A stretch of 64,000 nt of DNA from Vermamoeba vermiformis (lineage: Eukaryota), in the NCBI GenBank assembly GCA_045837725.1, contig JBEWZL010000282.1, forward strand, positions 434,001-498,000, given 5' to 3'. The position numbers and the translations under genes were made by a program. The number at the start of each line of letters is the position of its first letter. The stretch's first letter is position 1. Below are positions 39,616-61,940 of the stretch, one piece after another. The notes beneath the pieces are model-generated. The model made no database searches and was not told the DNA's origin. It saw only the letters and a list, made by a program, of their open reading frames with translations.

Positions 39616-42484
39616 ATGAGATCTTTTATCGCTGTTGTAGCCGTGCTGCTGGCGGTTTGCTGTTTCAATTCCGCGGAGGCTTTCAAAAGAAATACCGTAG
39701 CAAATCTGAAACTTGAAGATACTGGTAATTATCCTTAAATCACGAATATTATAGTAGTTTATAAATAATTAGATTAAGTGCACTTAGATATTATGAATGT
39801 TTCAAAGACATTTCTCGATCGTTGATAAAATGTCAATTATAATATTAAAAATTATTAGTTTACGCTTTTTACGAGCAAATTTAATTAATCGGATAATTAA
39901 CAAATTGATCAGATTCATTTTCAATAATATTCATCGTGTTTTCTGGATCTAGTCCGAAATCTGATCTTAGTTGACTAATGACCGTTTAATATAGCCACTC
40001 TATCAACATGCACTGAATGCATGCTCATTGCAGACCCTATTTTGTTCTTGCTCGAACAGAATCAAACTGCTCCTATGATCGAGCAAGGCATTGAGAAGTT
40101 CTGCGGTCTTTTGCCCTCTTTTATGCAAACCAAGGTAAATTTTCATACGGGTGTATATTTAGTATATGTGTAACACGCATAGTTAGCGTTTAATTTGTTT
40201 TCAGAAGATCCGATACTTATTTTTTTCTGAAGTGCTTCCAACTCGCCAAGGATGTAGTTATCTTCCTTCCTAAGCTTCTTTATTGGGATAAGTTTGAAGA
40301 TTACGATGCTAAGGCTATTTGCACCATGTTTAACCTCTGCGACTCACCGGTACGTAAGATCCGATCCGTTACACGGACTTCAATAACCTTAATTATCTTT
40401 CTTATTGCGCACTACGCATCATATACAATGTTATTAACATATTTATGCTGCTTAGTGCTGTGTAAGCAAAGCTCCTGAGCAGATCCACATTGCCGTCACC
40501 GGCGACGCAACTCAAATGGTTGTTACTTGGTGCGTACGAATACAATACGCATCCTCTTTATATTGTACTCATATTATATATTAATATAGGGTCTCATCTG
40601 AGAATGTAGATGCTACAGTCCAATTCGGCGTGAGCAGCACTAGCTTGACCAAGAGCGTTCAGGCCAATACTCACGTACGTTAGTTACAATATTTTAGCGC
40701 ATTTATAATGATTTGGGCAGTAAAGTAACTTATTAATGTTAATTATAATAGACTTACAAGAACGGAGGCTGGCGCGGGTACATCCACGACGCTATTTTGA
40801 ATGATTTGCAGCCATTTACGACGTATTATTATCGCGTTGGTGGCAGCAATTACGGTACGATATTAATACCATCACGGTAGTCCGATATTTATTAATTTTA
40901 CTGCTATTTTTTTAGGCTGGAGTCAGATCTACTCGTTCCAAACGTTCACTAATGATTTCAACTCGTATGCCAATCTTGAACACTCGTTCTTGTTGATTGG
41001 TGACATGGGTGCTGATCCTGAGGCCCCTGACACCATTGCGCGATTGAAGACTATTGGTACGATCCCGTTATTATTCACCAAGAAATTCCTCGAATTAATT
41101 TACTGTTTTTACAGCCACGTCTCACACTGCTAACTTATTGATCCACAACGGCGATATTTCTTACGCGTAAGAAGTGACTTTTACACGAGACCACTAGTCA
41201 CATTTGTTAACGACAATTTTAGCGATGGAATTCAAAGCCGAATGGATCTGTTCATGCGCAACATGCAAGATGTCACCGCTAACTTGCCTTATATGGTAAG
41301 AGTACTCAATGAGTAATTCTAAGAATAAAATATTAACCAAAAGTCCGTAGGTCACCCCGGGCAATCACGAAGTCGGCATTACGACCATATTCAACGACTC
41401 GACCTTTGAGCACAGATTTTTGATGCCGCTTGACGAGAACAAAGCCACGCTGTTCAGCAAACGTGCGTTGATGCCGTTCAGAAACACGAGATTTGAGAAA
41501 CATTACGGCGTGTCCACTGCTGAGTCGGGCGAGTTGTTTTCAAACTTCTTTTACAGCTTTGACTACGGCTTGTTCCACTTTATTGGCATGGACACTGAGA
41601 GCGAGTTCGACATTCCTCTCGTCACCGCGTAAGCAATGATGCATTTATTGCCTAATTAGGAAATAATTTTTAACGTCCATTTTTCTTCCTGTAGCAAGCA
41701 ACGCGCGTGGTTGATTAACGACTTGATCAAGGCCAATCAAAACAGACAACAACACCCGTGGATTGTCGTGTACGGTCATCGTCCTTTGTACTGCTCGAAC
41801 CCTGGTACGTCCCACTGATATTACAATGACACGTGTCAAACTCTATCACGAGTTGCAAAAATCATCAGTGACACGTGTCAAAAAGTTTCAATATCTATGG
41901 CCGTTGGCACTTTTCATGCGGTTCGAATTAGACACGTGAAAAATACTTTGGTGACACGTGTCAAAGTATTAACCTAAGTGTCGCCGTAGGTCTGGACTGC
42001 ACTGACTTCGGCGAGTACTTGCGCTTGGAGCTCGAAGACATCTTCAACAAGTACCAGGTCGACATGGTTTTCGCTGGTCACAAGCACAGCTACGAACGAT
42101 TTTATCAAGTGCGCAACAACCAGTTCATTTCCAACAACTACAATCAACCGACGTAAGTCACGTGCTCGTGTGACACTTGCCAAATATAGTAACGATATTA
42201 ATATGACTTTAATATAGCACTCCTGTCTACATTACCAACGGTGCTGGTGGCAACAGAGAGAACTTCCAGCCGTTCATTGAAAACTATCCTCCGTTCTCTG
42301 CCGTTAGATTAAGAGAGTGGGGTAAGTATAGTTATAAGTCTTATATTAAATAAGTATCTAATATAACATGTTTTCAGGCTACAACTGGTGCTCGGCCTCG
42401 AACAGCACTGTGTTGCAATGCAACTTTTTCCGTTCTTCAGACAACGCTATGCACGATAGCATCACTATTGTTAAGAACCATTAA
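39616..42484 (+). CDS. Secreted purple acid phosphatase (ACP7-like) with an N-terminal saposin-B-like domain
   Basis: Signal peptide; saposin Cys pattern CTEC...FCGLLP..|C...AICTMFNLC; PEQIHIA; metallophosphoesterase motifs GDMG, GDISY, GNHE, GHRP, GHKHSYER. Confidence 0.88.
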
Positions 42485-42582
42485 GGTTATAGTTGTTAAT
42501 TATATTAAAGAATAGGTTTGCTATTAGAGCTCTCATCAACGTGTGTCAGATCCGATCCAAAAAAACAATTCTTCAACTTTTA

Positions 42583-44439
42583 TTAGCATCGAGAGAAAAA
42601 TTCTTCGGCGTCATAAGGCACGAGGAACGGGAAATTTTGAATTCTAACGTCAGGGAACGCGTTCTTGAGTAAGTACTTCATGCCAGTCGCTGACTTGATC
42701 CAACGAATTTCGTTCCTAGAAAACATGCCAATTTCATCATTTTCGTACCAGAATCGATCAGCATTGCGAGAACGCTTGAACTGATCGGCTATTATCTCGG
42801 CAGTAGTCGGACCAACTGCCCCGATGTACTTGTCCTCTGCCAACAGCCCTACGTACGCGTCAACTTTTTCCACGAACTGATAGACATCGCGCAGCTTGGA
42901 GGCTAGAGTGGAGTTGGAGGTGATGAGCGAGAAGCAGGCCAAAGTGTCTGGCTCAGTGGCGTTGAGATCACGACGGGAGCAGTGAGGATGCGCGGTGATG
43001 TCTTTGACGCCGAATGTTCTGTAAGCAGCACGAACTCGGACATAAGGCGCCAAGCCGTTCAATCTGCCGCGCATAATGTTGACTGCAATCACGTCGAATG
43101 GCACGCGAATAATGTTGCGCATGGAGTCGTCGAACAAAATGTCAACTTCATTCGACTTTTCAAACGAGAGGCCGTGCACGACGTACGCAGGATTTTCAAC
43201 CCAAGCCATGAGATCGACACCACTCGTCGTACCACCGTTTTGTCCAGCTGCACTGCGTTGATTGCGGAATGGTTGGTCTGGATAAGGTGCATTGTTGCAT
43301 CGGTCTTTGAAGGGCAGAATGTTGATCAGCGCACTGTGGCCGAATCTAAATGCAGCAGTGGAGAACAACACATTGGTGGTCGGATCTTCGTCTTCATTGT
43401 AGCCGCGGTACGGACCAATACGACGATAGTGCACGCCAAGCACGGTGGGCAAGTACTCATCGTAGACCACGTGCTGGTAGATTGCTGTGATCCACGCACG
43501 CGCTGTTTGGAAGATCTGCTCGTCGGACCAGTGCGGATATTGTGCACGCAGCTCGGCGGCTTTGAGATTGTGGTTGCGCAAGAACATGCCGTGAATGGTG
43601 ATCAGACCCAAGTTCTCGTTCACGCGTGGATCACCAGCAGAAAAACACTCGTTGTCAGGCTGATTGAGATCGACTACTCTGCTAGTGTTGACGCCAGTGT
43701 CAGACACGAGTGGCAGCCAGTTGAGGAAGGTGGATGTGAGCACTGGTTGACCGGTGATAGTCGTGTTTACTGCGATGTAGTCGCGGGTCTTGAGCTTGCC
43801 ATCAGCGAATGTACGAAGGGCATCAGAGTGTTCTTTGCTGAGGCCGTAGACTTGACTCAGATCCAGGTAAGAAGTAGCGTCGTTGGTCACTTGAAAAACG
43901 CCATTGACGACTTGGCCTAATGTTCTGAGCGTGCGGATGCGATATTTGCGCGAAGGTACTGGCACTGTTGGAGGCAAAGGATCGTTGGGCTCAATGATTG
44001 GAATAATTACGGCATCCGTGTCTGAATCTGGCAAAGAAAAAACGGCATCCGACGTTTCATTACGTTTGTTGATGCCCATATCGTGGGCAATCCATTGGCC
44101 GAAGTAAGTCCACAAAAGGCTGAGTCCAATGTGGTTTTGACCTACAGTTGTAGTTCCACCATTCATGAGTGCATTTGACAGGACACGTTCGTTAGGCAGT
44201 TGGGGACTGCGGATCGGAGTGACGCCATCAGATTCATAATGATAGCCTTCGGGACCTCGGCGAAACAATGAATCAACTTGTCCTAGTGTTGGATTCGCGA
44301 GGTTGTTGCATGATCCATCAAAAGAGCGCCAAATTGAGGTGCAAGCCGGATCTTCATTAATTGATAGCACCAAAACAGCATTAATTAACAAAATAATAGC
44401 ACATAGGCCGATTTTATTCAGCCTTAAAAGCGACAACAT
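42583..44439 (-). CDS. Secreted heme peroxidase (peroxidase-cyclooxygenase superfamily), intronless
   Basis: RSFDGSCNNL, GQWIAHD (distal His), AGDPRVNEN, AAFRFGHS (proximal His), IMRGR, DRFWYEN; hydrophobic signal peptide. ATG at 44439. Confidence 0.93.
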   Translation of the reverse strand: MLSLLRLNKIGLCAIILLINAVLVLSINEDPACTSIWRSFDGSCNNLANPTLGQVDSLFRRGPEGYHYESDGVTPIRSPQLPNERVLSNALMNGGTTTVGQNHIGLSLLWTYFGQWIAHDMGINKRNETSDAVFSLPDSDTDAVIIPIIEPNDPLPPTVPVPSRKYRIRTLRTLGQVVNGVFQVTNDATSYLDLSQVYGLSKEHSDALRTFADGKLKTRDYIAVNTTITGQPVLTSTFLNWLPLVSDTGVNTSRVVDLNQPDNECFSAGDPRVNENLGLITIHGMFLRNHNLKAAELRAQYPHWSDEQIFQTARAWITAIYQHVVYDEYLPTVLGVHYRRIGPYRGYNEDEDPTTNVLFSTAAFRFGHSALINILPFKDRCNNAPYPDQPFRNQRSAAGQNGGTTSGVDLMAWVENPAYVVHGLSFEKSNEVDILFDDSMRNIIRVPFDVIAVNIMRGRLNGLAPYVRVRAAYRTFGVKDITAHPHCSRRDLNATEPDTLACFSLITSNSTLASKLRDVYQFVEKVDAYVGLLAEDKYIGAVGPTTAEIIADQFKRSRNADRFWYENDEIGMFSRNEIRWIKSATGMKYLLKNAFPDVRIQNFPFLVPYDAEEFFSRC

Positions 44440-44770
44440 TGTAAGTGCTTGTCGATCCAAATGGATTTGATGAAAGAATTGGGTGGCGTTGCAAAAACCC
44501 TTTTATTTGTTTCTAACCACAAGATTTTGTTTGTGGGACAGCGGAATAACTGTTGTACCGTTCACTGAATTAGAGGTTGTTTAGTGCTGTCAGATCTTGA
44601 TAGCACACAACCGAAGAAGAGTATACTTTAAGCACACAATTGTTGCCATATTACCGTACCAACGGCATAATTCAGCAGAACGTAAAGTATTGCAAGTATT
44701 TTGACGCCTGTCACAGATCCGTCAAAAAACTAAACTTGAATTTAAACATGCCCACCCAAAACCCACATTT

Positions 44771-45032
44771 ATTTCATTTGTTTGTTTAAAGGACGACCTT
44801 ACTCGGATGCGTATCATTGACACTTCTCGTTTGAAAAGGTCAAAGCAAACGCAACGCATTCTCGTTGTTTTCACCCAGAGCTGGAACGCATTGTTGGATA
44901 CAAGTAAAGGTCGCTGCACTCTGAGTGAGCTGAATACGTTGCACGCACCTGATTGGGTGAATGGAATCGAGTGCTAATTACTCTTTTATTGCTTAAATAC
45001 GGGATTTTTCTTGTGGGACGAAATTGCACGTT
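44771..45032. repeat. Copy 1 of a ~260-bp duplicated non-coding element with strong base-pairing potential
   Basis: Near-identical to 46446-46703 by direct reading. Confidence 0.9.
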
Positions 45033-45143
45033 GTTTCGCGGGCACCGAAAAAATTAAGAATGAACCGTCAATTATGGACATTGGCTGCCTATCATTATTG
45101 CCTTATCTTTGATAACATAAATAGAGGCTTGGGCGTGTAAAGA

Positions 45144-46254
45144 ATGGATTATTTTGATTTTTACAGTTTATTGCCCGAACTTCAAATTCAAGTCATCAAA
45201 TGCCTCGATATTCAAACTTTAGGACGATTTATACAAACACATCGACATGCTGAAAACGGCGTTCCTAAAATTGCATGGAAAAGAAGAATAAACGAGCTTG
45301 ATCCCACGATCTGGTCTCAGTTATCGAAATGGACGCGGAAAGGCGATTTAAAATTATTATGTGCTATTGTGCGCGATGGATCAGTACGTAGCATCCGAAG
45401 TAATTTCAAAAAAATTATTTTATTTTATTAGAGTTGGTGTGGCTGTCCTGTTGGCTCGGATAGACTAGACAAAAATAACTTCCCTCTAAAGCTACTCGAT
45501 TTTTTGCTTTATTTACAAAAGATATTCCCGTCTGTGCCAGCTCAAAACGCATTTTTGTGCTATTTATTGACCTACGCTAAGCACGGTTCGGTTTCCCCTC
45601 TTCGCTTTAACAAGAAGTAAGCTATTAAATATATATTAACAATATATATTAATGAGGTATTAGTATTGGCATGAAGTACGGCGATGTCTTCATAACGCAC
45701 CGAAGAATTCTTGGCTGGCTTAGATCCAATGCCCCGTTTATAAAAACTGGCATTTTATTTCGGTAAGCAAGTATTAAATATACAAAAGCAATCTAATTAT
45801 AGTATTAAGAGTCTTTTTGCATCAATTTGCTCGCGTTACTTATTGCTGGAGTGTCAAATGGAAAATGGATCCGCTGTTCATCAACAACCGAGAGGCCTTT
45901 TCAAATGACTATATTAAATTATACGACCAAGACTCAAAGTTGATCGAGTTTCATCCAGTCATGAGACACCGAATGACTAATCACAGAAGAAACAATTTGA
46001 GAATCAAAAGTGGTACACTTAAAATCGATAATGCCAAAACAAAGTTCTATTCAATCGAACAAATCCGAAAAAACAAATTCAAAATTGTATTGGACGGACA
46101 AGAACTCTCGCCGTATGATTTGTATTATTTCTTCGATAATTTGTACACGTACAAGAAGTACGATCTGTGTCAGCGGCAGACGCACGTACCTCCTGTTATT
46201 TACAAGTGGCTTATGGCCAAGCAAGATAGATCACACGACTCTTTTTGGCCTTAA
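45144..46254 (+). CDS. F-box-like protein, paralog A of a tandem pair
   Basis: FYSLLPELQIQVIKCLDIQTLGRF (F-box-like); 4 exons; homologous to the gene at 46790. Confidence 0.7.
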
Positions 46255-46445
46255 AATAAACGCCTTTTGCTCGTTCGTTTGACATCCGAGTTCGTCCAAC
46301 AGACTTTAAAGTGCAAAATTACAACTAATTGTTAATTGAGAATTAATTTTACAACCTCTAAACAGTTAAATATTGAAAATATTTGACTCCTGTCGCATCC
46401 GTCAATTTTTGTGAATTAACAGCCCCACCCCATACCCGTAGATTC

Positions 46446-46703
46446 ATTTCATTTGTTTTTTAAAGGACGACCTTACTCGGATGCGTATCATTGACACTTC
46501 TCGTTTGAGAAGGTCAAAGTAAACGCAACGCATTCTCGTTGTTTTCACTCAGAGCTGGAACGCATTGTTGGTACAAGTAAAGGTCGCTGCACTCTGAGTG
46601 AGTGAATACGTTGCACGCACCTGATTGGGTGACTTGAATCGAGTGCTAATTGCTCTTTTATTGCTGGATTCGCAGATTTTTCTTGTGGGACGAAATTGCA
46701 CGT
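46446..46703. repeat. Copy 2 of the ~260-bp duplicated non-coding element
   Basis: Near-identical to 44771-45032. Confidence 0.9.
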
Positions 46704-46789
46704 TAGCAAAAAGGTAAGAAAAATCGGAACGGCCACAAAAAATGCATATTTTATTCATCTTTCGTATATATCCAATAGTACTATTCAAT

Positions 46790-49700
46790 ATGACGAGCAC
46801 AAATACTGCAGATTATTTCGATTTTGACAACTTGGTGCCTGAACTTCGAATAGAAGTCATTAAGTATCTTGATATTCAAACTTTAGGACGGTTCATACAA
46901 ACAAATCGAAGTGCTGCCGGTCATATTTCAAAAGACGATTGGAAAAGAAAAATACACGAGCTAGATCCGACGATCTGGCCTAAATTATCGAAAAGAACGC
47001 GAAAAGGCGATCCAAAATTATTGTGTGCTATTGTACGCGAGGGTTTGGTAAGCTTTTATCGATTTAAATCATTTCCGAGGTAGTACTAACTCAGAGAGAA
47101 GACCTGGTGCAATTGCCATTCCAATTTATACACTCAACGAAGCTTCCCTCTAAAGTGGCTAGATTATCTGTTGAATTTACAGAAGACTTTTCCGTCTGTT
47201 CCTGCACAAAACGCATTTTTGTGCTTTTTGTTAACCTACGCGAAACATGGCTCGGGTCATTTTGGTCGTTTAAATAAGAAGTAGGCAAATATCGCTTCAT
47301 ATATCGCTTACGCATCCTATTAACCTTAATTACTAGTATTGGCATGAAATGTGGCGATGTTTTTTTGAGTCACCGGAGAATTCTTGAGTTTTTGCGTTCA
47401 AATCGACCTTTCAGAAAAACTTCCTTCCTTGATAGGTAAGTTATAATACACTAGATAACGCCTAGCTAATTTTGATCCGAAGAATGTTTTTACATCAGTT
47501 TGCTCGCGTCACTTATTGCTGGAGCGTCAAGTGGAAAATGGATCCGCTGTTCATCAACAACCGAGAGGCCTTTTCAAGTGACTATATTAAACTATACGAC
47601 CAGGACTCAAAGTTGATCGAGTTTCATCCAGTCATGAGACACCGAGTAACGAAGTACTACGGAAGAAGAAACAATTTAATAAGAAATATTGGACCACTTA
47701 AAATCGATAATGCCAAAACGAAGTTCTATTCAATCGAACAAATCAGAAAAAACAAATTCAAAATTATATTGGACGGTGCTGAATTCACCAGAGGAAAAAA
47801 ATCAGGGCGTTTTGCAAGCGTTGTTTTGACCAACACTTCTTGCACGCGCTATTTTCCCTTTGATTTACAACGCCTGGCGTTACGAAAAAAATAAAAACGG
47901 TTAACTTTAAAACAACGCCGTTATTTATTGTACCACAACGCTACTAAGCTCCGTTCCGTTCCGTCGTTCCGTTCTGTTCCTTCCGTCGGCCACGCGACTA
48001 TTTTTTCTGCAGAAGAAAATGTAAAGTTAGTACTCAATCCGGTAAATTTTTTTTTGCACTTACCGCCGGGCGACCACGCTTTGACGTTTCTTTTTTGTGA
48101 GTCACCTCCTGAAGAAGAAAATATAAGAAAACTGTATTACTTACTCTTTCGTTTTTTGCTTGCCTTCGTGGTCTTCTTGTTCGTTTTGGTGCCTCTCGAA
48201 TACTAGAGGCTTGAATCGCGCTGTGTAATTGGTCAGTGCATGATTGCCAGGAAGCTGTGAATATTGCACGTCTTCAATCGTGCAAAGTGATTTTTGTCCT
48301 TTTTCACAGAGCTTTTTGCATCGACGCCATGCCTAACAAAAAATAACAGAACTGAGTGATTACTGCTAAAGGAATTCTCTTGAACAAAGAAATACCGAAA
48401 CCTTGGCTTTGCCAGCTTCATTTGGAGTGCTCTCGAGGAAGAATCCAATCAAGAGATCTTTGCCTTCTTCAGTCTTGAAATAGTCGCCGATGCATGAGCG
48501 TTGGTTGTGGACCCCAGGAAGTTCCAAGCAGCATCAAGAGACTCAATTTGAGTGCCTCGTATTATGAGCCTAAAGAGAAAGAGAGAAAAAGAAAGAGACG
48601 GATTCGCTACGTGCCGCGAGACGTTTTTAATCCTGTCATCATCGAAATGAAATTGCCTTTGCCATCCGTTATTTTCCATGATTGAGATCCAGACTGTTCA
48701 CCAACACCCGATCAAGAAGATAGAGCTCTTCATATCGCTTCAAAGAAAAGAAATCCTGAGCTACCCAATCGTCATCCTCGCTGGAATTGCCGCCGCTTCT
48801 TTGCGGATTTTCTGAGCTCAAAAGGCAAAGCAAAAGAACCGTAAACACTAATCTGCAATTCTGAGTAAGGGAACAAAACGAACAAACCCCCAGCGTATTC
48901 TATTTTTAAAAAAAAAAAACCAATAAAAAAAAAAAAAAATCGCCGACTACAAAAAAAAGTATGCCACCTTTAACAAAAGCCAGGCACAGAAGCCGTCACG
49001 AGAGAGCGCATCCGCGGCGAACCAGACAGCATTGAAAATTTCTTTAGGGGAGGTCCTCACCTGAAGATCAACCAGTCACGGACAGATGGCGAAAGAAGGA
49101 ACAGGCAATCTACGAGCGTCATCTCACGCGGGAATAGCGACACTCGGAGGAAAGCCGCGTAACGGACGAACAGTTTTACAAGGAAGAAATAATTCGTATA
49201 TTAACATGGTTATAGAATAATAATGAGGATTGTTATGGTATACTCACCCAAGTCAACGAGATCGAGGTGTCAATCGCCACACAAACATTAGCAGGAACGT
49301 CAAAAGAATCGAGATTGGTCAAGCTCCTCGTCATTACACCACTAAGAGAAGTGAACGCCATTCCAAATTTGAAAAAAAGAACCTTTCAGGAGTTGAAACA
49401 ATCCACGCGGATCTACGCATTCGATGAACAACCTATTCAACAAGTATTAACCAAGTTAAAGGATTACAAAAATAAGGAATACGTATATATAGTATAATTA
49501 GAAGGAAAGAATCCGAAACATTGTTTGTTGATCGGATTTAGTTGATTTAAAAAATAAATTTTATTAGAAACAATTATTTACAACGAAATATACAATAAAA
49601 GTGGTAATATATGCGTAAATATATTATATTTACCATTTAATTAATTGTTGATATCGTCAGTTGTTTGCACGCGAAAACGAATAACTTGAATCTGCTATAA

Positions 49701-50611
49701 CAGTCGAAATAAATACACAGCCACGTTTGAGTGCTTTAAAATTAACAAAAATATATATTATGTGATATCGCGTGGTTGTTTGTGTTCGTTGGTATTGAAA
49801 AATAGGTCGGTCCAAAAAACACTTGCAAACTCGAACTACACAACACTACAACAAGTCAATAGTACGTAGTGTTTGTTTTTATGTCATTATATGTTGTATC
49901 TCATCCGATTTTATTCTTAATTCAATGATCGAAGGGAGGATGTGCGATCGACAAACACGATCTCTTACCAGTATTTCTCGAATTTCGAAAAAACAGCATG
50001 ATCACGTAAGAATAACTATATTTAATGCACTTACTGGCCGTAAAATTCAATTAACCGCGACCTTGATCGAGATTGGGCCACGAAACAAAATTTCATCAGC
50101 AATAATTTATTTTATTAATATAACATTGTCGTCATCATTTATATAATGCAAATAGCATATATTTATAAAAATATTTATTTTTAAAATCGTTCGACGGGAG
50201 ATCGCGCGATGAGCCGCATGTGACATCCTCTCTCGAAATCAATCGAATCTAAACCATACCCATTCGCTTCTTGAATACATAAATATACTTTTCCCTCAAT
50301 ACGACCCCTATAATCCCCCGCGTCTCCGATCTGAAATCCGGTGTTTTCGTGCCCCAACGCCGTTTTTTCCTTTTTTTGCGTTACAATAATCAAAACAACG
50401 CCAAAAATCGACCTACAACGCCGGTTTATTGGTCAAAACGCCCTTTTTTTTTCCTGTAGTGTTAACGCCGAACGAATTGTATTATTTCTTTGATTACGCG
50501 TGTATCGACTGGAACCATCCGTTCTGTAACCGTGCTTCTGCTATGCCCATAGCCATCAAAAATTGGCTGTTAGAAAAACGAGACAGATCTGTGCAGAACG
50601 GCGGTTGGTAA
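46790..50611 (+). pseudogene. F-box-like protein paralog B, last exon interrupted by a CACTA-like element
   Basis: Removing 47786-50461 and one TT copy restores ...LDGAELTPNELYYFFD..., which aligns with paralog A ...LDGQELSPYDLYYFFD. Confidence 0.8.
47786..50461. mobile_element. Non-autonomous CACTA/EnSpm (CMC)-like DNA transposon, 2676 bp, 2-bp TSD (TT)
   Basis: Left end CACCAGAGGAAAAAAATCAGGGCGTTTTG; right end reverse-complement CACTACAGGAAAAAAAAAGGGCGTTTTG. TT at 47784-47785 and 50462-50463. Subterminal CAACG/ACAACGCC repeats. No transposase recognised. Confidence 0.85.
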
Positions 50612-50763
50612 CAATAAAGATCTTATTTAAGACAGATCAAATGACTACGAATAAAGAGGAGTGCTTCAAATTGTATTTGTATTGACGATTTAAATTACTC
50701 CGCATCGCCACGCAGATTTCTGAAACACTCCTTCCGGTGGTTCATTCTATTTCCACGAAAGAG

Positions 50764-53625
50764 ATGAGCACGAGAAAGAGAGCCTTAGAGGATGGTGACA
50801 ACGAGCAGCAAGCCAAACGGCAAAAACTAGAGCATAATGAAGTGACTACTGTGCATCCATTCGAATTGGCAGAGCTTGTGGAGGCGATCGTAGCACATCT
50901 GCTTTCAATTTCGCCTTTGTCAATTTTAAATTTAATGTGCTCCTCAAAAAGGTGAGTAATACGATTATATATAACAATTAAACGCACTGCGATAATATTT
51001 AAAAATAAACTATATAAAATCTTATTTCTTGTAACTTTCAGACTGCGAGATGTGGTGCTTGCCAAGTCTTTGTGGCTTCGTCAAGGCTTCAAACAACTCT
51101 ACGACATGGCTTCAAATGATTTTCTTCCCGCAGAATATCTTCGTGCAGTTTTGGGTCAACTGGAGCTCGATCGACTGAAACAACAAGAATTGCGGTGGGG
51201 CCAAGCGTCCCTATTTCTAAAGGTCGATAAATATGTGACAAATGAAGAAACGTAAGATTATAGTCGTAATGTCCTTAAACTAACCATTGTTGTTTAGTAC
51301 TGGCCTTCTTGAGTGCAAATTCGATCTGGTCCACGAAGAAAGACGCAGATATGATACACGGCGGTTAAATTCAGCAGAATATTTAGCAGATCGATGTCTT
51401 ACAGATGAGGCACACAGAGTGTTGTTGAACATCATGGCAAGATTAGTTAACAAATTTATCACGATCCAACAGTTGATCGAGTTTATCGAGATCTCAGAGG
51501 AAGATATTCTAAAAAAACGTAAGTATTATAGACTCTTATATATATACATATATATCTGATTGTTGTATTCTAGAAAAACAAGATTTGCACGAGATTTTAT
51601 ATGTACCTGCAGCGGAATACGAAGAAGTTGAGGCCACTTCATTCAACGAATACTTGCAAGCAGAAGCACTGTATTATCCAGAAATGGAAATGTAAGCAAT
51701 AAGAATATTCATACGACTACGACAAAGTTTTTAATAATAATTTTTATAATTCAGTGGTCCAGCCAAGTTTTACCCAGTGATGATGATCGATGGTGTGTAC
51801 AGCACGGTGCTCTATCGTGAGGAAGATTTTCCGTCGACAGAACTCAATTTCCGAATTTGGAAACGGTTCATGGACGAGCATCGATCGATTTTGATCTTTG
51901 ATGGCATGTTCGAAGTAGCAAATGTAGCCGCCGAAGCACACAACCCCTATATCAAAGTAGCTTATTAATCCATAATAATAATAATAATATAATATTAATT
52001 ATTTTTCACAGTTTAATTCGCAAAAGAATTTGATCGAAGAATGCGGCTTTTTGAACGTAGATCCAAACGAAAGCGGAGTTAGAAATACCACAAGATGCGG
52101 AATTTTTGAAATTCATCGAATTTCCTTTTAAGAAAGAGGAATGTTTTGAGCTGGCTGGGGATATCACGTCACTACTATTTGGCGACTACGTAGAGCATTT
52201 CTTGGTTGAGCGAATGAAACCACCGCACAAGTACTTCAAAAACGTCAAATTTAGAAGAACTCAAAGCGACATTGATTTTGAAACGAATTTATGCAAAGTT
52301 CACTCGGATCCAGCGAACATCTTCTTCGAGTCGGTATTGCCTTATTTGGTAAACGATCCGAAATCCTTCCTGACATTCTTCCGCACTTGCAAAAGGTAAA
52401 TTGGTGCTCGAGCTGTAGACAGCACAACTTAAACTAACTTCAATGTTCTATTTTTAGCTTCCGAAAGCTACGGAATGAGAAAGATGTTTGGAAAAGACTT
52501 GGCTTTGTGCACTTTGCGGAGTGGCACTACGACTACGAAGGTGTTAAAATTCTTCAAACTAGTCACATCAGACGCATCTTGCGCGCGATAAGAAGAGATT
52601 TTGTTCATGAAAAAGTATTGCAGCTAAACTCTGACATGCAGTGTGTCAATCACATTTCAAATTTATCGCAGGAAACTGTCTTGTAAGTGTTACTTTGAAG
52701 CACTAAGAATGACATACTAACTACTACAGGCAAATGGAGAACAAATTATTTGACCCGACAAAAGACGAGGCGTTTGTAGCAATTCATGGCGTGAGATTTC
52801 AAGAGTATTTAGCCAACAGAAAACTCACTGAAGAGGCCGCACAGATGTTGATGTGGCTGAAAAGAAAAATTGCTGTCGAACTTGTTAGTGTCGAAGATTT
52901 GATTGGCTTCATTGAACTAGAGAAAGATCAACCTTGTAAGTAATTTCCCCCTTTCTTATCTTCTTATATGTGCCTTATCTTATTCTATTATTGTTAGTGG
53001 GCATTACAGAAATGGTTACTAAAGTGGATGTGACAGTGCCACAAGCAGAAGAGCAGCACGAGTACTTGGTCAGCCTTTTGCGTGGTTTGTGGTGCGAGTA
53101 AGTTTTTCTGAATATTAATAACGTACTTTCAACTCACGGAATTAATCAGGGAGGATTGGGACTTTGACGTGTTGTTGCAGACCCAACACACCTTCACGTC
53201 CAATTCTCACGTGGAAATAGACTCGGATGCAGTGCAAATCAGCATTACTGTGAACAAAGTGTTTGTTGGCGAGGATCGATCGATAGTGTTCATTCAGTCC
53301 TATTGCGGATTAATGAGCATTGTCAGCGAAGAAGATTTTTACATCAAAGTACGCGAAATATTATGTTATTTGATCGTCATATTAACTTTTTATATTCTAG
53401 TATGACAAAAGCAAGAATTTGATTGAAGAGTGTGGCACGCTGTCAACTTTCAGAGCGATGAATTGTCCGAATGAAATTGATCAGCACACTGTTATTTGCA
53501 TGATGTTAGAGAAGCCTGGACAGCCTGTGGGCTTCACCGAAGACATGTTAATGCGGCGTGAAATAATATGGCAAGCACCATTGCCCGAGTACCACTTCAA
53601 GAACATCAAGTTCAAGAAGGATTGA
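50764..53625 (+). CDS. Multi-exon protein made of two tandem homologous modules, each starting with an F-box-like segment
   Basis: AEYLADRCLTDEA..LIEFIE vs QEYLANRKLTEEA..LIGFIE; KNLIEECG in both halves; PHKYFKNVKF vs PEYHFKNIKF. NLS-like N-terminus. Confidence 0.65.
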
Positions 53626-53708
53626 ACGAGATCTGGTGCACATAAAGCACTCGATGGAGAACGATAAATACACAGTTTCGCGACTATTTACAATACATAG
53701 ACACAGTA

Positions 53709-55509
53709 TTATACATGGTTATCATTGGAAGAGTCAGCAGGCAACGTACTGCTTGGCCGAGAGACCTCGTTGGACACGGATCCTTTGGGCGATGTTTTGT
53801 TGGACAGGCGACTGTTTGGTAACTCAAATGCTAATATATTGGCCATGGACGCGGCGTTGATCGCAGTGAATAGAGAGTACCATACAGCCATATAATCTAA
53901 GTGGAAAAAGTTAGTCGGATCTGGCGGGCTAACAATGGATCTACTTACTGATTGGTGCGTAAGCAAAGCCTGTCGCAAATAGTGCTGCGAACAAAACGAA
54001 CAATATTAAGAACCCTGCGCATACTAACATTCTTATAGTAGTCTAAACAATAGACCGTTAGTTTTGATGGCAGATCGGATAAATTTGTACCTTTTTCAAC
54101 GCAACTGTTTTGCCGATATTTTTACTCTCGTTCATGCGCCGAAGTAACTTAACGCCAGTAATTAAATGGAACACAACAATAGCCACTGATACCGCAATGT
54201 ACAGTACCGCTAAAAAAAGACAATTAGATCCGTACATTCAATTTTCATGAAAAATAGTACCAGTCACAAATTGCAAGTGATCGACTGTCGTCCAACTTCT
54301 TAGAAATAATTGCAGTAATTGCACGGCAATTAATGTGGCTGAAAGTACGAAGAACGGAATTTTCATCCGGATGATGAACGGATGTACAATGATTGAAGAC
54401 GTCGTCATCATTTCGTGCCAGTATAATATGATCAATATGAAGGACGATAATGCGAATGGCATCGATAGGCGCGTAAAGGCTACTGAGACTTGTTCTGAGT
54501 AAATAAAATTCGCGCAAAGCGGATCGATGATGTGCAACAGCCGAACTGCGGGTAGAACGATTAATATTGGATTATTATATGCTATGGTACTATTCTCATG
54601 TACTTACGAGTATTAGAGAATAATTCGATCGACAGAACAAAAATGGCGATGGATGCGGTGCAGCCTCCATAAAACATAGAGAAATCTCGCAACTTCCAAA
54701 TCGCTAAGCCGATGTGCAGCCTGCTGGATATAGTCCCAAGAACACTATAACAAAATATTAAGCATAATTGGCAATTTTAAAGCGAAATTTCTGATTCTGA
54801 AATTTACCTGTCCAGATGTAGTAACCAGCCCCATAGTAGGTATCATCCCAAGGGTTAGGCGCGTCTATAATATGATTTAATATGATTTTAATTGTTATGA
54901 AGCTGATATTTACGTCATCTTACCGCTTGGCAAAAATGTTACGGATGCAATCTGGTTGGTGTAAAAGAGCGGCAAGAAGATCTTTGCTTCTGGTATAGCC
55001 ATCTCGAATACTGATATATTAATCTTTTTAAGGTTCTCTTTATCGTTCCATCGCCATTTCAAGTAGCCTCCCACATCTGGCGTTAAGTTTTAAGTTATTG
55101 CAAGAATTTCGAATAGGCCAAACAGAATCTGATTCGACTTACAGTATGTCGGAGATACATATAATGCTCCTATGGCACCCTTATTTTGCGCGTCAAGAAT
55201 AAGTTCGTCAACGGCAAGTGGATTTCGGATGATAAAAATTTTGTTTTGAACATCATCCGTCTTATTTGTTATTTCCGCAGTAATGGCATAATTTATGCGT
55301 GTTCCAATGCCGCCTATAATTAGAATTTAGCCGCAGTTTCAACAAAAATTGCAAAAAATAATGTACTTACCAACGTACAAAATTTCAATGCTTTCAAGCG
55401 GGATTATGGTGCCATTTTTCATTCGAATAATAAGTTGTGCTTGTGTTGTATTGATTGTCAATAACAAAACTATAATTGTGAGCCAAAAAGGCCAACTCCT
55501 CAAGATCAT
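53709..55509 (-). CDS. Signal peptide + PA-like ectodomain + multi-pass (about 7TM) membrane protein; apparent frameshift near 54710
   Basis: MILRSWPFWLTIIVLLL; DAQNKGAIGALYV (PA-like); PNPW followed by TM helices (LRLLHIIDP, ILIILYWHEM). In-frame TAG at 54704-54706 after splicing. Confidence 0.6.
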
Positions 55510-56570
55510 TTCTTGGCTTGTGGATGTGCTGCGCTTGTTGTGTTGTAAGCTGCTTGCCGAAATGTCTAAAAAGATTGGCACAGGGATAATTGACTGGTCA
55601 AATCAATCTCCGGTTTGGACAAAAAAGGAAATCAGATTTTTTAAAGTGGATTTGATCCCGCGACAGGGGTATTTTTACCTTTCGTTCCAGAATCGCACAC
55701 TGTAGTAAGCTCGATAATATGATTAACTCGGATAATATGAGCCTATTTAAGCATTTTATTGCTCTTGGATCTCGACAATTTTTGTTTTGCTTCTTGCGTG
55801 CTTGGCGTTTTGAAATTTACTCCACGCTAATTATAGTATAAGAAGATTATATTTAGATATTGATTAATTGCATATAAATCCTTTTTTGTACACTTACTGT
55901 AGCCAACAGATCGGATTATTTGAGCAGTACCGAATAAAATTGCGCCAAGAAGAGCCGCGTAAGAAAAATAAAGCATATATCGCTTAGCTTGCGCGCCAAA
56001 TATAACAATAGAGTCACCTAGTCTATAATCAAAGGTATTAGCTGTAAGTTTTCGATCGCGTAAGTTTGGATGTGAGCTCAGAAATAATTATTTTAAATTA
56101 ATAATACTAACCTATTAATGCTAGTTGCTAGGATCTTCGCGGCATCAACAACTGACTCGTTAATTTTTTTAAGGGATGCACCAGGCGTGTCAATTTGATT
56201 TAATCCTTCTACAGCTGCATCCAAAAATCTTTTGGCAATATTTTACGTGAATATATTTTATATTAATTATAGGAGTGCTAGACTTACGATTTGCTGCCGT
56301 CTATAATATATCGTAATAATTAAAATACGACCGCAGATCTGGATCTTTTTTTCCTTACGTACCTGCTGCAGCGCTTGTCTTGGCTTTTAAAGAATTCATA
56401 TTATTCTATACAATAATAATTTTAAAATTAAGCTGATGTTGGTAGCACACAGCTTCAGTGTCAAACAAAATCATTTTTAGCACTTTTCTGGAAATTTGTA
56501 CTTTTAAAACTACAACTAATCTACACAACTAGCACTAGCTCACTGACGGATCACAAGCCCTTGGACTCTA

Positions 56571-59500
56571 TCACGTGATAATGTTCATACTCGGAGGCAG
56601 AGTACTGGATGACACGGGACAGAAGTTAAGTGCCACGCTGTCCGTGCACGTGGCCTTGATGTAGACAGGCGAGTTGGAGCCGTCAATGCCCCACACTGTC
56701 ACACCGTCGCGCGTGTATGGCGGCACGCCAGACCGCGTCTCGTAGTTCTTGACATTGACGTACAAGTACTGACCACTGAAGTAGAACGAGAACGGCGTGT
56801 TGATCAGCGCAGTCATGTTCAGCACTTGGACGTACGATCCCTTGTGACCGAAATAGCGGTCTTGATAGGTAATGTTGAACGTCGTGCCCGCAGGATAACT
56901 CAGCACAAAATAGGCCTGAGCATTGGGAGGCACACGAGTAGGCATAAAGCTCCAGCTCTTGGGTGCTCCGTTATTCGGGAACTGAACGAACCAACCTTCG
57001 CCGCTAATGCCCGTGGCGGCACTTTGACCGTACGTGAAGTTTGTGGTCGTTGTTGGACGGCCACACAGAGTGAACGAGCCCATTACATCACCACTCGCAC
57101 CGGTGTAGTTTGCCACGGAGATACCTACATTGATAATTTCACGGCCCTAAACGATGATAAGTCAGTTTAATATTGCCAATAAGACTCATGTGTTGTTCTT
57201 ACGGGTTTTCTGGGACAGATCCAGGTGCGCCAGTTCCAGTCGTAGTGACAATCATCACCTCCGTTCCAAATGCCAGCCCAGCTGCCAATAATACCACCGC
57301 CACTAACGCCAGTAACTGAACCGTCCCAGTCTTCAATGTTCGAAGACATGCGTGCAAAGCCCGTGTCACTTTGAACTCTGACGGCGTCATCACAGTCTAT
57401 GAGGGTACATTTGAACATTAGTCCTTAGTACTAGTGAGACTTACCATCAAAGTGAAGGCCACTGACAGCTGAAATTCCTTGATTGAGCGACTGATCGACG
57501 TTGTTCAAGACACTCAAACAGTTCGTGTTCTGATTGATGCTGACACTGTTCACGAATCTCGTGTCATTCTTGTACCCGACGAAGGTCACATTGGACAGAA
57601 TGGCCACACTCCATTGATCGTACTATCTCAACGTTAGTAAGTTAAACAACAAATTAAGTGTGACTTACGAATTGGAAGCCTTGTGAGCCTTGAGGTTGAC
57701 CATAGATGTTCGTCTTGGGATAGCCCAACGGATTCTTCGTGATACCAAAGACTGAGTCCTTGCCGAGAGCTGGACCGAAGAGTGTTGCACCACGACCGAC
57801 ATCCCATGACTAGAAGCATCGTTAGTGACACGTGTCAAACATGTCAAAAGTGTTATCGTTACCTCGGAGTTTCGGAACTCGACGGAGTTACCCCAATGAT
57901 TTGTACCTTGACCACACAACCACGCCTTGAAGTTGGTGATGTTCAGCGCTGTATCGACGATCTTGCCATCGACCCACTTGCGGGCATTTCTGTTGTCAGC
58001 ACCTTGGGTGCGGCCTCCGTTGTAAGTCAGCACGTCATTGCTATCGTACCACAATACTACAAAGAGGTTAACTACATTGTATATAACCTTATTGGCTTAG
58101 TCACGTACGTCCTCCCGAATAGAGACAGCCACCAAAGATCGAGAAGTAGTATCCGGAGGAATGTGCTGTGTTGCCGTCGAACTGAAGTGCTGCTTTGTCC
58201 TTTGGTGCAATGGGCATGTACATGCCTTTGAACTCGCCTGTGGGGACCTTGAAGTGCGGCAGAATGATGCCAGACCATCCTCCTGACGCGGCATTGCCTC
58301 GCACGAAGTTCCACATGTTCGAGATGTAGAAACCTGCTGCTGCCGAGTCAGCGGGCAAGATTCCTGTAAAACCGATTAGCTATTGATTACAATATCGATG
58401 TTCGGCGTACTGTCAGGTGTGGCCGGTAAGTTGGCCATGAACTGACTTCCGCTAGTCGCGAAGTCACCAATGTACGCCACACGAGAGGCAAGATTGAACG
58501 AGATTGTGTTGTTCTCTTCGACGCCCTGTGTTTGTGTTAGTTAAGAGCTAATGACACTAAATGTTGAGCATCTTACGTCTTCGAGGTAGTAGCAGTGACC
58601 ATGTGTTCTGAACGCGACATTGCGCGACACCAACATCTCATGTGTGCCGTGAACTGTAATGCAGCGGAAGTAGCTGTCGTGCACACTGTTGTCTGTAGCA
58701 TACGAAGTCGAGGAGATGTTCATCAAGTGGAAATGAATCTAAAAGATACAGTGTCAAAAATGATGACACGTGTCAAAGTGTCATTATATTCAAACTTACA
58801 GGATATCGTCCAAGCATGTTGAACTGACCCATTCTGTTCGTTTCAATGCCCGAAACTCGGCCTTCACCCATCATCATCAGGTGACCGCCGAACATTTCCG
58901 TGTCAGAGGCTTCATCGCCACTCAGCTGAATGCGACGAGACAGCAAGCCAACTTCGGTCTGATACTCCGCTCCTGCATGATGATAGAAGCGAATGCGACT
59001 CGTGAACTGAACAACATTATCTTGGACTGCTCGCACCGTGAGGACTTCATTCATGTCGTAGAAGTCGTCGTACATGAACGATGTGACCAATAACACTTGT
59101 TGACCTGCCTCCCAGTTGACATTTTGTTGCAAGAACAAGCGATCAGAGCCAGGCATTGCTGGTGCTGCGAGACGACTCCACGAAGGATTGAATTGTTTGC
59201 CTGTGATAGAGCGTCAGTCGCATCACAGCCTTAAAATAGCTGCGTAGGACGTACCGTGAAGTTCAACTACACTGCCTTTGTACGCAACAATGCCTTTGCC
59301 TTCAGTTGGAGTTGAGGCCTTGTCACCGAAGAATGTCAACTTGATGTTCGAGTACAAACGACACGTTGATGAGCCCATTCTGATTTCAATGTTAGCCACT
59401 CGTACTATGATTCTGTCTTACAACTGGTTGTTACCTTATAGCACCATAGACCCAGATAGTTCCGATGTTCAGTTCAATCGGTGCATCTGCAAAGATAAGC

Positions 59501-61940
59501 TCGCTGCCAGCTGGAACTGTGATCTCTTTGTAGGGAAGGACGTTGCTGAAGGAACACGGGGTCACTAGAACTCGGGTGTTTGGAGGAAGCGTCACTGATG
59601 AGCCTGGAGCTGGTATTTGATTGTTTGCTGCAAAAAAGACAAACATTAGTAAGTTGCATCAACGACAAATGGCTAGAAGCTCTTACACCAAGTTGAGGGG
59701 TCTTCCCACTTCTTGAGTCCATCTTGAAGATGAGGACAGTCTGTGCGAGGATTGGGATCGACACCATTCGGCATCAAAGGAATGTACGCGGCTCTGAACA
59801 CTTCATTCGAGTACATCGTTGGCTTGGTGAAGGGCTGCTCGACCAGCTCGAAAGTGATGTCTTTGTAGAAGAACATTCCTGCCCCACCGAAGCTCCCTTG
59901 AATGGCAAAGAAAGCACGTGACGCGAGATTAGGAGGAGAGAACGTGTAAGTGTAACTGGCCCATTCCGTGGTGATGCCATTGGGTGCAAGGTTGTCTGAC
60001 GCAACGACGAAGGACGAACCAGAAGGAGCTGTAGTTTGTGTGTAGTTGCCTGGAGGATACTTGCGGCTCTCAGTGTCGGTCTGTGTGGCGTCAAAGATCT
60101 TAAACACACGAACGGTAACATCGGCAGTGGTGTTGACATTTTCATTCTTTGGATCTTGTTTGATTGAGAAGCTAATCTTGTACGTGCGATCTGGATGAAG
60201 AGAGAACGGCAGCAAATACCCAGAATTCAATAGAAGCGCGAATGGGTTCGCTGAGTACTTGGGCTTGTACAATGTGATGCCGTTGTCCGTGCGATTGACT
60301 TTTAAAGTGACCGCACCCATTGTAATGCCAATGAATGCTGTCTCGTCGTCGTACTTCTGCACGTAGTTTGGATACGATGATTGAGGATCGAATGATGCCA
60401 TTGGTGGGGTGAAATCAACAGTTGCAAAGTCAGTGCAAGTGGCCGTCGGAACATCAAAACGAACAGTCACTGTAGTCTTGGCCTTGAGTGTCATTGAGCC
60501 TGAAGTGCCATCGCCGCACACTCCGCTCTTCGTTTGAGCTGCGTCTGATGTGACTGAGCAGTTGGATGGAAGTTCGACTGAATCTCCGAATGAGATGTCA
60601 AACGTTCCTGAAAGCCCATAGCCCTATCATATAGTTGTTAATAAAGACTTACATTCTATTAGCGCTCATGTGCTTGAAGACTTACGTCAACAAAAGACAA
60701 GAACACGCTGCTTTGAGAGCTTGTGACACTTGTCTGAATCTCACTGCCGACACTTATCTTCTCCAACACAACAGAGGACGATGTGGACACAGACAACGAT
60801 GAGCCTACACTCAACAAGCTCATGCCCACAACACCACCGTTGTCTGACTTGATGTTGAGTGACAGATCCCCAGCTGAAAGAAGACCAGAGGTCGATGTGA
60901 TGCTTCCTTCGTCCAGTTCGACTAGCACCACGTTGAAGTGATAGCCAGCAGGATAGCTTAAGATGACCTGAGGGCATTGTTAGTACGGCCACAATGTCAT
61001 ATGCAAGCGAGACATACCTCCAGTTCAAGATTATCGGATTGTGCAAAGATAACGGAGATAAGTCCTAATAAACAGTTATTATTATACTAGGTCTTAGTAT
61101 GCCTTCAAAGTTACTTACCGAAGATCGCAGCAACCAATAGACCAGTTTTGCGTCGAGAACCGAAAGTTGACAGAAGCAAGGCTGTAGGGACAAGGCTCGC
61201 GAGAATAAAAGAGATTTGGTTCGAATGACCTCTGCTGATACCGCTAGAGGATACCTGAATATCAATTGTATGTTAGAAACAATTAGGGTGTGATTTAAAT
61301 AGCCTATTTACAACGTAGCGAGTGTGAACCAAACGAAGAAAAAAATTGATCAAATCCGAATCTGGTTCGGAAAGAAAAAACAAGCTCTGAGCGACATTAA
61401 TGCTTATATATATGTTATAAATGCATCTTTGGCTTGTAATCATAGCGCAAAAGTTTACGGAGAAGCGAGTGTGAGCACCACACAGATTTTCTGTCACAAA
61501 TTCGAACTCGAAATTACAAAATCGAAATCAAACACCTCGTAAATATATTTGTAATACTCTCCAATTACGCATTCTATTAATTAAAGGAAAACAAACCGGC
61601 TGGGTTCTTACCTTCAAGTAGATCTCGCCGTTGGAGCCGTACGACACTATTTCATCCAACGATACGCGTGTATTTGAGTTAATAGTTAATTTAGGTGAAC
61701 TAACGTCTGCCTGTTGCGTCTTGAAATTAGCCTGTAGAAAAAACAAAATTAATTACCGCATCCACGTTACTCAATCAACGAGAATAAATCAATCTGCATC
61801 GTTATAATACTAACCTTGATGGAAGAAAATAAACGGAGGTTATTATCCACGTTGATGTCGCCGACGAAGTCTGCCGCGACAACAAGCGAACAGCACAGAG
61901 CAACGAGCACTCCGAATAGTACTCTGTTTAGCTGCGCCAT
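56571..61940 (-). CDS. G8-domain / parallel beta-helix secreted protein (dictyostelid comF-like, fibrocystin/TMEM2-related)
   Basis: KWEDPSTW (G8 start), AEYQTEVGLLSRRI, FGGHLM, MGQFNMLGRYP|IHFH, YFRCITVHGTH, GHCYYLEDG, DSAAAGFYISN. Exons join in phase up to the ATG at 61940. Confidence 0.85.

Follow-up and report, generated by a model that had tools for sequence, protein, structure and literature searches.

A 12-bp palindrome, TGACACGTGTCA, was analyzed in a 64,000-nucleotide stretch of the Vermamoeba vermiformis genome (the window; positions 434001-498000 of contig C282, JBEWZL010000282.1, in the 43.3-Mb, 309-contig assembly GCA_045837725.1, here G000), in which five perfect copies lie within introns. 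These five copies belong to an element spread over the whole genome, whose true motif is TGACA-S-S-TGTCA. Its approximately 4,000 sites occupy gene bodies beyond about +600 bp from the start codon and are densest around a repeat found once per contig. The explanation that we favor, tentatively and with slightly less than even confidence, is that these sites may form a sequence-encoded gene-body chromatin mark, dense in pericentromeres and read by a dimer of TALE homeodomain proteins.

Genome-wide abundance of the palindrome

The perfect palindrome was present 2,793 times in the 43.3 Mb, compared with 4 occurrences of the reversed word used as a control and approximately 2 expected from base composition. 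When up to one mismatch was allowed, 5,104 sites were counted versus 82 for the control; the single-mismatch variants, 2,311 in total, were fewer than the perfect copies. The palindrome was the most frequent 12-mer after poly-A in a 464-kb sample, with 53 copies versus 0.05-1.4 expected by Markov models of orders 1-5 and 4.2 by order 6. The order-7 model expected 22, only because the motif's own 8-mers were already included in it. A Markov background was ruled out as the source of the copies by these values (orders 1-6), and the original prediction, that five perfect copies in 64 kb lay far above chance, was borne out by the whole genome. The window itself contained 17 matches with two mismatches or fewer, versus 2.89 ± 1.63 after shuffling.

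Consensus and independence of the half-sites

The two central positions were CG, CC/GG and GC in 2,793, 1,060 and 124 of 3,977 sites, respectively, the central CG being altered in 1,184 of them (~30%). The controls for the 1,060 copies of the TGACAGGTGTCA type and the 124 copies of TGACAGCTGTCA gave 1 and 5. If the two TGACA(C/G) half-sites were independent of each other, with p(C) = 0.836, counts of 2777:1093:108 would be expected, close to those observed (chi2 3.6, p 0.058).

Position-dependent properties were analyzed in an 864-kb sample from six contigs, a non-random choice with 10 copies per 100 kb versus 6.4 genome-wide. Inverted TGACA pairs in introns were separated by 2 bp in 49 cases and by any other spacer up to 25 in at most 4 cases each; in the 864 kb, spacers other than 2 bp were rare overall (9 of 133). 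Additional TGACA half-sites were found nearby as direct repeats, including 13 intronic pairs with a 3-nt spacer and without an E-box, and no longer palindrome arms were detected. A second gene-body motif, CACGTG with GT/AT/AG flanks (RTCACGTG), was also observed. Its halves pair mutually and avoid the GA half, it is represented genome-wide by 650 copies of GTCACGTGAC versus 84 of the control, and it avoids promoters as well.

CpG decay was not seen at the motif: among the 81 single-mismatch variants of the sample, 2 were CpG-to-TpG decay products, and the observed/expected ratio (o/e) of CpG in gene bodies was ~1. The suggestion that the palindrome guides methylation through its CpG was weakened, because the commonest variants (1,060 CC/GG and 124 GC copies) change the central CG and because CG and CC are exchanged between orthologs at two sites. 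The proposal of a dimeric-factor site or chromatin signal was supported by the sharp consensus, the independent half-sites, and the ortholog conservation and strand symmetry described below; the G-box/E-box identity that accompanied it is not favored, given how commonly the central CG is changed.

Position of the sites within genes

Genes in the 864-kb sample were delimited by a simple self-trained gene model with the motif masked. The model was checked against RNA for one gene, that of the purple acid phosphatase in the window, and recovered the GT..AG introns that the RNA supports. The 87 perfect copies were assigned to predicted introns (65), exons (17) and intergenic DNA (5), with densities of 49, 3.4 and 2.1 per 100 kb, respectively; at least 2 of the 22 non-intronic copies look by eye like missed introns. 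Hence, the palindrome does not occur only inside introns, as had been proposed, and the window itself carries TGACAGCTGTCA in a predicted metE exon. The intronic majority arises because introns offer most room.

The 17 exonic copies compared with 0.19 expected, and the maximum over 100 within-gene synonymous shuffles was 2. Thr-Arg-Val stretches were encoded exactly as ACA CGT GTC in 19 of 54 cases. Furthermore, several peptides were enriched beyond +700 bp (TRV, 42 vs 20; HVT, 30 vs 11; DHV, 31 vs 9; HV, 257 vs 168), and no enrichment of these four was seen before +500 bp. The excess of HV-type peptides corresponds mainly to the wider CACGTG family.

A clear exclusion from gene starts was observed. 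Motif introns, ~5% of all introns (78/1,656), numbered 5 of the 682 that start less than 600 bp from the start codon and 73 of the 974 further in (p 2e-12). This exclusion tracked distance and not intron rank, since none of the 148 third-or-later introns inside 600 bp carried the motif, and it persisted in GC-rich introns (3/114 vs 48/283) and both inside and outside GC-rich domains. Beyond +600 bp, ~24-35 sites per 100 kb were found in each gene-length class, with site counts overdispersed among genes (clustering by gene). The predicted host proteins looked like a mixture of housekeeping functions. The site does not serve as an element of promoters, and its placement, originally described as intronic, is better put as gene bodies beyond about +600 bp.

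Within motif introns the position was free (3-175 nt from the donor and 1-151 nt from the acceptor), no fixed distance to the splice sites being found in the sample, and the intron length was normal (56.5 vs 56 nt). The asymmetric variant showed no strand preference in introns (7 vs 9) or exons (9 vs 5). At 3' gene ends, CACGTG reached 0.45 per kb in tandem and 1.06 in convergent arrangements, the palindrome itself being present in small counts of 5 and 5.

Two other compositional features were observed in the sample. In the predicted genes, the GC content of third codon positions (GC3) rose from 0.49 to 0.60 and that of introns from 0.30 to 0.36 across the first 600-800 bp, a 5'-AT-rich gradient. 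RGATCY words (CAGATCTG, CGGATCTG) and TTCATGAA were also enriched in introns and exons; RGATCY was counted 703 times in coding DNA versus 421 after synonymous shuffling, and it was present at gene starts as well.

Density gradient around a one-per-contig repeat

In the site listings, weak variants piled up in one stretch per contig. The center of four such stretches was a gene-free or gene-poor, CpG-depleted locus of 1.5-3.8 kb with a common repeat family and inverted-repeat ends. Searches for this repeat, in which the best 40 of 75 and the best 40 of 109 candidates were scored, gave 93 matches on 48 contigs (which are not proven chromosomes), with a single spot of 1.9 kb or less per contig, five of them at the contig start. 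Five of these loci are given below, 43 further contigs carrying the repeat.

C282:365.5-369.3 kb, one-per-contig repeat locus
C145:240.6-243.5 kb, one-per-contig repeat locus
C184:118.7-121.1 kb, one-per-contig repeat locus
C3:445.8-447.2 kb, one-per-contig repeat locus
C84:513.2-514.9 kb, one-per-contig repeat locus

The CpG o/e of the repeat was 0.35-0.49 at four loci and 0.68 at the fifth. The repeat was found where motif clusters predicted it on C8 and C12, and C11, C13 and C30 were absent from the scored candidates. A fresh 20-kb stretch at the C84 repeat was motif-rich with 50-56% GC, while positions 200-300 kb of the same contig were motif-poor with 40% GC.

The GC content was 49-51% within 30 kb of the repeat and 40-45% beyond. 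Perfect sites reached 18.4 per 100 kb within this distance versus 7.3 beyond it, and weak sites 12.8 versus 1.3 (a 2.5- to 10-fold difference); the second motif, as GTCACGTG, reached 87 versus 8 per 100 kb (about 11-fold). On contigs with a located repeat, 34 of the 43 listed CC sites and 15 of the 26 listed GC sites lay within 30 kb of it, and the weak-to-perfect ratio was 33:51 close to the repeat but 7:41 away from it (p 0.003). No palindrome copy was found in three long gene-free stretches containing the central repeat. The window itself belongs to the arm, at a distance of 67-131 kb from the C282 copy.

The locus is interpreted as a putative centromere, because it is single per contig, gene-free, repeat-rich and CpG-depleted. 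According to a chromosome-scale study of Acanthamoeba, the centromeres of that organism have yet to be positioned precisely (PMC9528979). Strong CpG depletion (o/e 0.12-0.3) was also seen in stretches that lack this repeat, at C84:201-203 and 270-271 kb and C202:118-119 and 147-149 kb; these are probably methylated transposons.

Copies of the motif in the window and their host genes

The copies and host genes identified in the window are the following, with a strand given for genes and the RNA-supported intron and none for the sites.

31559..31570, GC-centered variant TGACAGCTGTCA in a predicted metE exon, overlooked in the original prediction
32668..32679, 11/12 copy in the predicted metE intron 32643-32695
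40021..42484, + strand, purple acid phosphatase gene with 12 predicted introns and an uncertain start codon; Metallophos_C and purple acid phosphatase structure matches; RNA reads
41805..41989, + strand, GT..AG intron of 185 bp in the purple acid phosphatase gene, with three perfect copies inside; RNA joint 41803/41989 (runs X21, X23, X24) and gene model
41827..41838, perfect palindrome TGACACGTGTCA, 22 nt into intron 41805-41989, predicted start codon 1.8 kb away
41869..41880, perfect palindrome, second copy within the same intron
41931..41938, partial copy GACACGTG with one full half-site
41952..41963, perfect palindrome, with the 3' splice site of the same intron 26 nt downstream
42157..42182, GTCACGTG at 42157-42164, belonging to the second gene-body motif (bHLH-type), together with a 10/12 variant, both inside the predicted intron 42153-42217
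56571..61940, - strand, G8/CEMIP-like beta-helix gene with 16 predicted introns
57826..57837, perfect palindrome in the predicted G8-gene intron 57810-57862, immediately 5' of a sense-strand CTAAC branch point and 4.1 kb from the start
58764..58775, perfect palindrome in the predicted G8-gene intron 58739-58799, with extra half-sites on the flanks and 3.2 kb from the start

The five perfect copies (starting at 41827, 41869, 41952, 57826 and 58764), the 11/12 metE copy at 32668 and the partial copy at 41931 were all confirmed where they had been reported. The looser variants at 10100, 15330 and 42157/42171 fell inside predicted introns, and the three host genes (purple acid phosphatase, G8/CEMIP-domain gene and metE) were identified as proposed. 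The 185-bp phosphatase intron was supported by spliced RNA reads of a strain with the same label (diverged by ~10-15%), in which 41805-41989 and the neighboring introns are removed. The metE intron and the two G8 introns are gene-model predictions, the latter without RNA coverage. Reads piled at 41931-41965 had unlike flanks, derived from other loci, and were excluded as evidence.

Two neighboring regions were also described. An animal-type heme peroxidase gene (42583-44502, - strand), intronless and palindrome-free, had the highest RNA read coverage of any gene. Between 45141 and 47894, an AT-rich stretch devoid of the motif contains a pair of similar F-box-like open frames and, downstream, another pair of similar frames; with a separation of ~1.6 kb, they point to a tandem duplication at this place.

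Conservation of the sites in relatives

A metagenome scan for paired copies gave at least 120 loci, of which all 120 were clustered and 10 examined closely. Among the matches listed, an intronic layout was found only in L213 and in the terminal 400 bp of L171, the latter contig being chimeric in appearance. The remaining loci listed were dropped, as they look like plant-type repeats, bacterial operators and satellites. Each of the two has one ortholog in G000, the amino-acid identities being 92% and 79%. In these two orthologous gene pairs, all five intronic sites were located at the same place in both genomes. Motif columns matched at 57 of 60 positions (58 by eye, one depending on gap placement), versus 30 of 84 for the other intron columns, and third codon positions matched at 61 of 96.

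A viral scan was also performed (119 loci); the dense contigs that were opened were bacteriophage-like and unrelated to this genome. In tailed-phage-like contigs of IMG/VR (L336, L338, L243-L246, L270-L273, L290-L294, L306-L311), one TTTGACACGTGTCAAA was present per 1-1.5 kb or so, in many cases at the junction between genes, and could be a repressor or stoperator-like site.

Candidate binding proteins

TGACAGGTGTCA has been listed as the motif of MEIS3 (PMC5449588), and TGACAGCTGTCA is contacted by two TGIF1 monomers, one on each of the opposite half-sites, by means of an ArgArgArg helix (PMC6158717). Ten Homeobox_KN matches were detected in the genome. The helix WFINARRR was present in four homeodomains (L057, L062, L063 and L064). 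In L056 the helix reads WFTNARRR, and the nearest solved structures to L056 are PKNOX1, MEIS and TGIF. The binder is probably a TALE homeodomain of the MEIS/PKNOX/TGIF type acting as two copies.

A search covering the HLH family gave five matches in the genome, and these bHLH domains better suit the second gene-body motif (CACGTG with GT/AT/AG flanks) than the palindrome. Seven PF00145 matches at four loci were found; typed by eye, these C5-methyltransferases look like DNMT1, chromodomain DNMT and DNMT2 types, and not like long-site enzymes. Among them, L354 (C11:560-563 kb) has several chromodomain-like units in front, seen by eye, and DNMT1-like and DNMT2-like genes, also typed by eye, are present alongside it in the set (L352 on C124 and L355 on C232).

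Two further TALE homeobox genes, L058 and L065 (C263:147.0-148.6 kb), lie head to head ~120 bp apart and have the helices WFINARQR and WYANARTR, with a palindrome in an intron of one of them. This layout recalls, as we take it, the divergent homeodomain pairs of mating loci.

Discussion

According to the explanation that we favor, two inverted TGACA(C/G) half-sites on double-stranded DNA (TGACASSTGTCA, with C over G) would be bound by a TALE pair. The sites are placed from about +600 bp on, in introns where possible and through synonymous or even amino-acid choice in exons, and reach their highest density in a GC-rich domain with sharp borders that extends ±30 kb around the one-per-contig repeat. 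TGIF-type proteins recruit deacetylase co-repressors. The bound factor may likewise recruit a co-repressor or structural activity, so that gene bodies would be kept promoter-incompetent and distinct from the promoter-proximal zone. Because the proposed binder would block promoter activity, sites would be selected against at gene starts and most needed beside the centromere.

A broader version is conceivable but doubtful. In it, TALE and bHLH words in introns, codons and peptides would together label gene bodies as well as a sharply delimited pericentromere (±30 kb), the centromeres being transposon-derived and confined to a single locus. Such a pericentromeric code could position cohesin or shield flanking genes from centromeric methylation.

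Several observations weigh against the chromatin mark. No broad-set site beyond +600 bp was present in 55 of 168 long genes, and the mark is hence not needed by every gene. No nucleosome-scale periodicity of the sites or of CpG was seen. TGACAC makes up 84% of the half-sites, whereas animal TALE dimers prefer TGACAG, and other protein folds could read the same word. The bHLH-type motif RTCACGTG and the GC content follow both gradients, and a common cause other than selection, such as recombination or repair, could account for this as well. The conservation test covers two pairs only, chosen since the relative carried the motif, and thus concerns presence in G000 alone.

Molecular drive of the kind proposed for cyanobacterial HIP1 is the main alternative explanation, and a rather unlikely one. 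Biased repair or gene conversion would make or restore sites at a bound protein, recombination would erode them at promoters, and the sites, with little function, would have a density that mirrors low recombination (gene bodies, pericentromeres). This would fit perfect copies outnumbering single-mismatch variants (2,793 vs 2,311), sites invading codons and peptides, GC, GC3 and the second motif following both gradients, and the higher weak-to-perfect ratio near the repeat. For HIP, a methylation-dependent mismatch-repair ratchet is the model (PMC4390886). Here, the central CpG is dispensable, its decay to TpG is rare (2/81), the C5-methyltransferases found do not look, by eye, like the long-site type, and drive also needs a sequence-specific binder.

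The extended E-box/G-box for a bHLH or bZIP dimer, put forward in the original prediction, is considered improbable. CACGTG is the most frequent center, the genome has its five HLH matches, CAC/CAG half-sites fit equal arithmetic, and HES5 is given with GACACGTGCC (PMC5449588). Nevertheless, the CACGTG/ACGT core is broken in ~30% of sites (1,184/3,977). Among the 81 single-mismatch sites, the usual E-box and G-box variants were few: the class-B variants CATGTG and CACGCG numbered 2 and 4, the HES-like TGGCAC half 5 and the plant-like TGCCAC half 4, and TGCCACGTGGCA was absent (0). The direct TGACA repeats with a 3-nt spacer lack an E-box, and the separate E-box family avoids the GA half.

Ordinary gene-specific enhancers or silencers that belong to one regulon (e.g., encystment) and were displaced into introns by a compact genome are still less probable. 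TALE proteins are developmental regulators elsewhere, which was counted for this explanation together with the conservation of the sites and their clustering by gene. Against it, the hosts seem to be housekeeping genes of various kinds, the density of sites follows chromosomal position and, beyond +600 bp, the length of the gene, and first introns and promoters, the normal location of regulon sites, are the emptiest.

An element acting at the RNA level, such as a splicing enhancer, branch point or hairpin, is very unlikely. The motif contains TGAC and supplies the sole branch-point-like word in 21 of 78 motif introns (72 with it vs 51 without), but the free intron position, the absence of strand preference and the copies deep in exons do not agree with such a role, and the hairpin reaches only -2.1 kcal/mol. 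The footprint of a tiny mobile element or introner, suggested by double copies within metagenomic repeat families of other organisms, can be practically dismissed: the 78 motif introns share no flanks (the ten blast lines shown spanned 12-14 nt) and have normal length, target duplications of 4 or 5 bp were found at 0 of 87 copies (2-bp, 10 vs 5.4 expected; 3-bp, 3 vs 1.4), flanks diverge while the motif stays, the palindrome is absent from the three long gene-free stretches with the central repeat, and copies are written into codons.

Regarding known systems, the word resembles a known TALE site. Neither the element nor its deployment was described in the literature searched (of incomplete coverage, mostly without subscription papers), where the exact word matched Ebola virus papers only. 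As in MEIS/PKNOX/TGIF sites, the TGACA halves are inverted around a 2-bp G/C spacer, TGACAGCTGTCA and TGACAGGTGTCA are both present and matching homeodomains are encoded; unlike them, C is preferred after TGACA (84%) and the ~4,000 sites are gene-body-confined, promoter-excluded, codon-written and concentrated at putative centromeres. The palindrome may also be likened to bacterial DNA uptake sequences. With HIP1 (PMC4390886) it has in common a short word hundreds-fold over expectation, the dominance of perfect copies and the presence in coding DNA; in contrast, the present element is eukaryotic, has 12 bp with a free center and depends strongly on where it lies in the gene and on the chromosome. 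Among the seven PF00145 matches at four loci, none was seen to be a long-site methyltransferase cognate to the word.

The consensus of yeast Cbf1/CDEI is RTCACRTG. The companion motif RTCACGTG, with its ~11-fold higher density within 30 kb of putative centromeres, is reminiscent of the Cbf1/CDEI E-box and the yeast pericentromere (PMC9371891). Unlike the single Cbf1/CDEI site of the centromere, the sites here are dispersed through flanking genes, and the palindrome does not correspond to an E-box of the Cbf1 type. The ctenophore CTEP1/2 loop-anchor motif (GC-rich) and the placozoan Mutator-derived motif (PMC12221973) are likewise lineage-specific, with a proposed architectural role and many intronic copies. 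Those motifs lie at promoters and enhancers and are bound by zinc fingers or derived from transposon ends, whereas the palindrome avoids promoters and has no transposon signature. Additionally, the post-TSS (transcription start site) zone of 6mA and H3K4me3 in Acanthamoeba and other protists, <~1 kb downstream of the start (PMC12695648), has about the extent of the motif-free zone and would be the complement of the motif territory.

In the usual view, gene-body and pericentromeric chromatin is set by transcription and the kinetochore, and not by thousands of DNA words. Here, a conserved and sharply defined word is kept out of promoters, influences the choice of codons and even of amino acids, is graded around one locus per contig and has a short list of candidate binders. 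If the broader version is true, V. vermiformis would have a sequence-directed, promoter-excluded gene-body and pericentromere code, and some 50 or more centromere positions would be gained in a lineage where perhaps none had been mapped.

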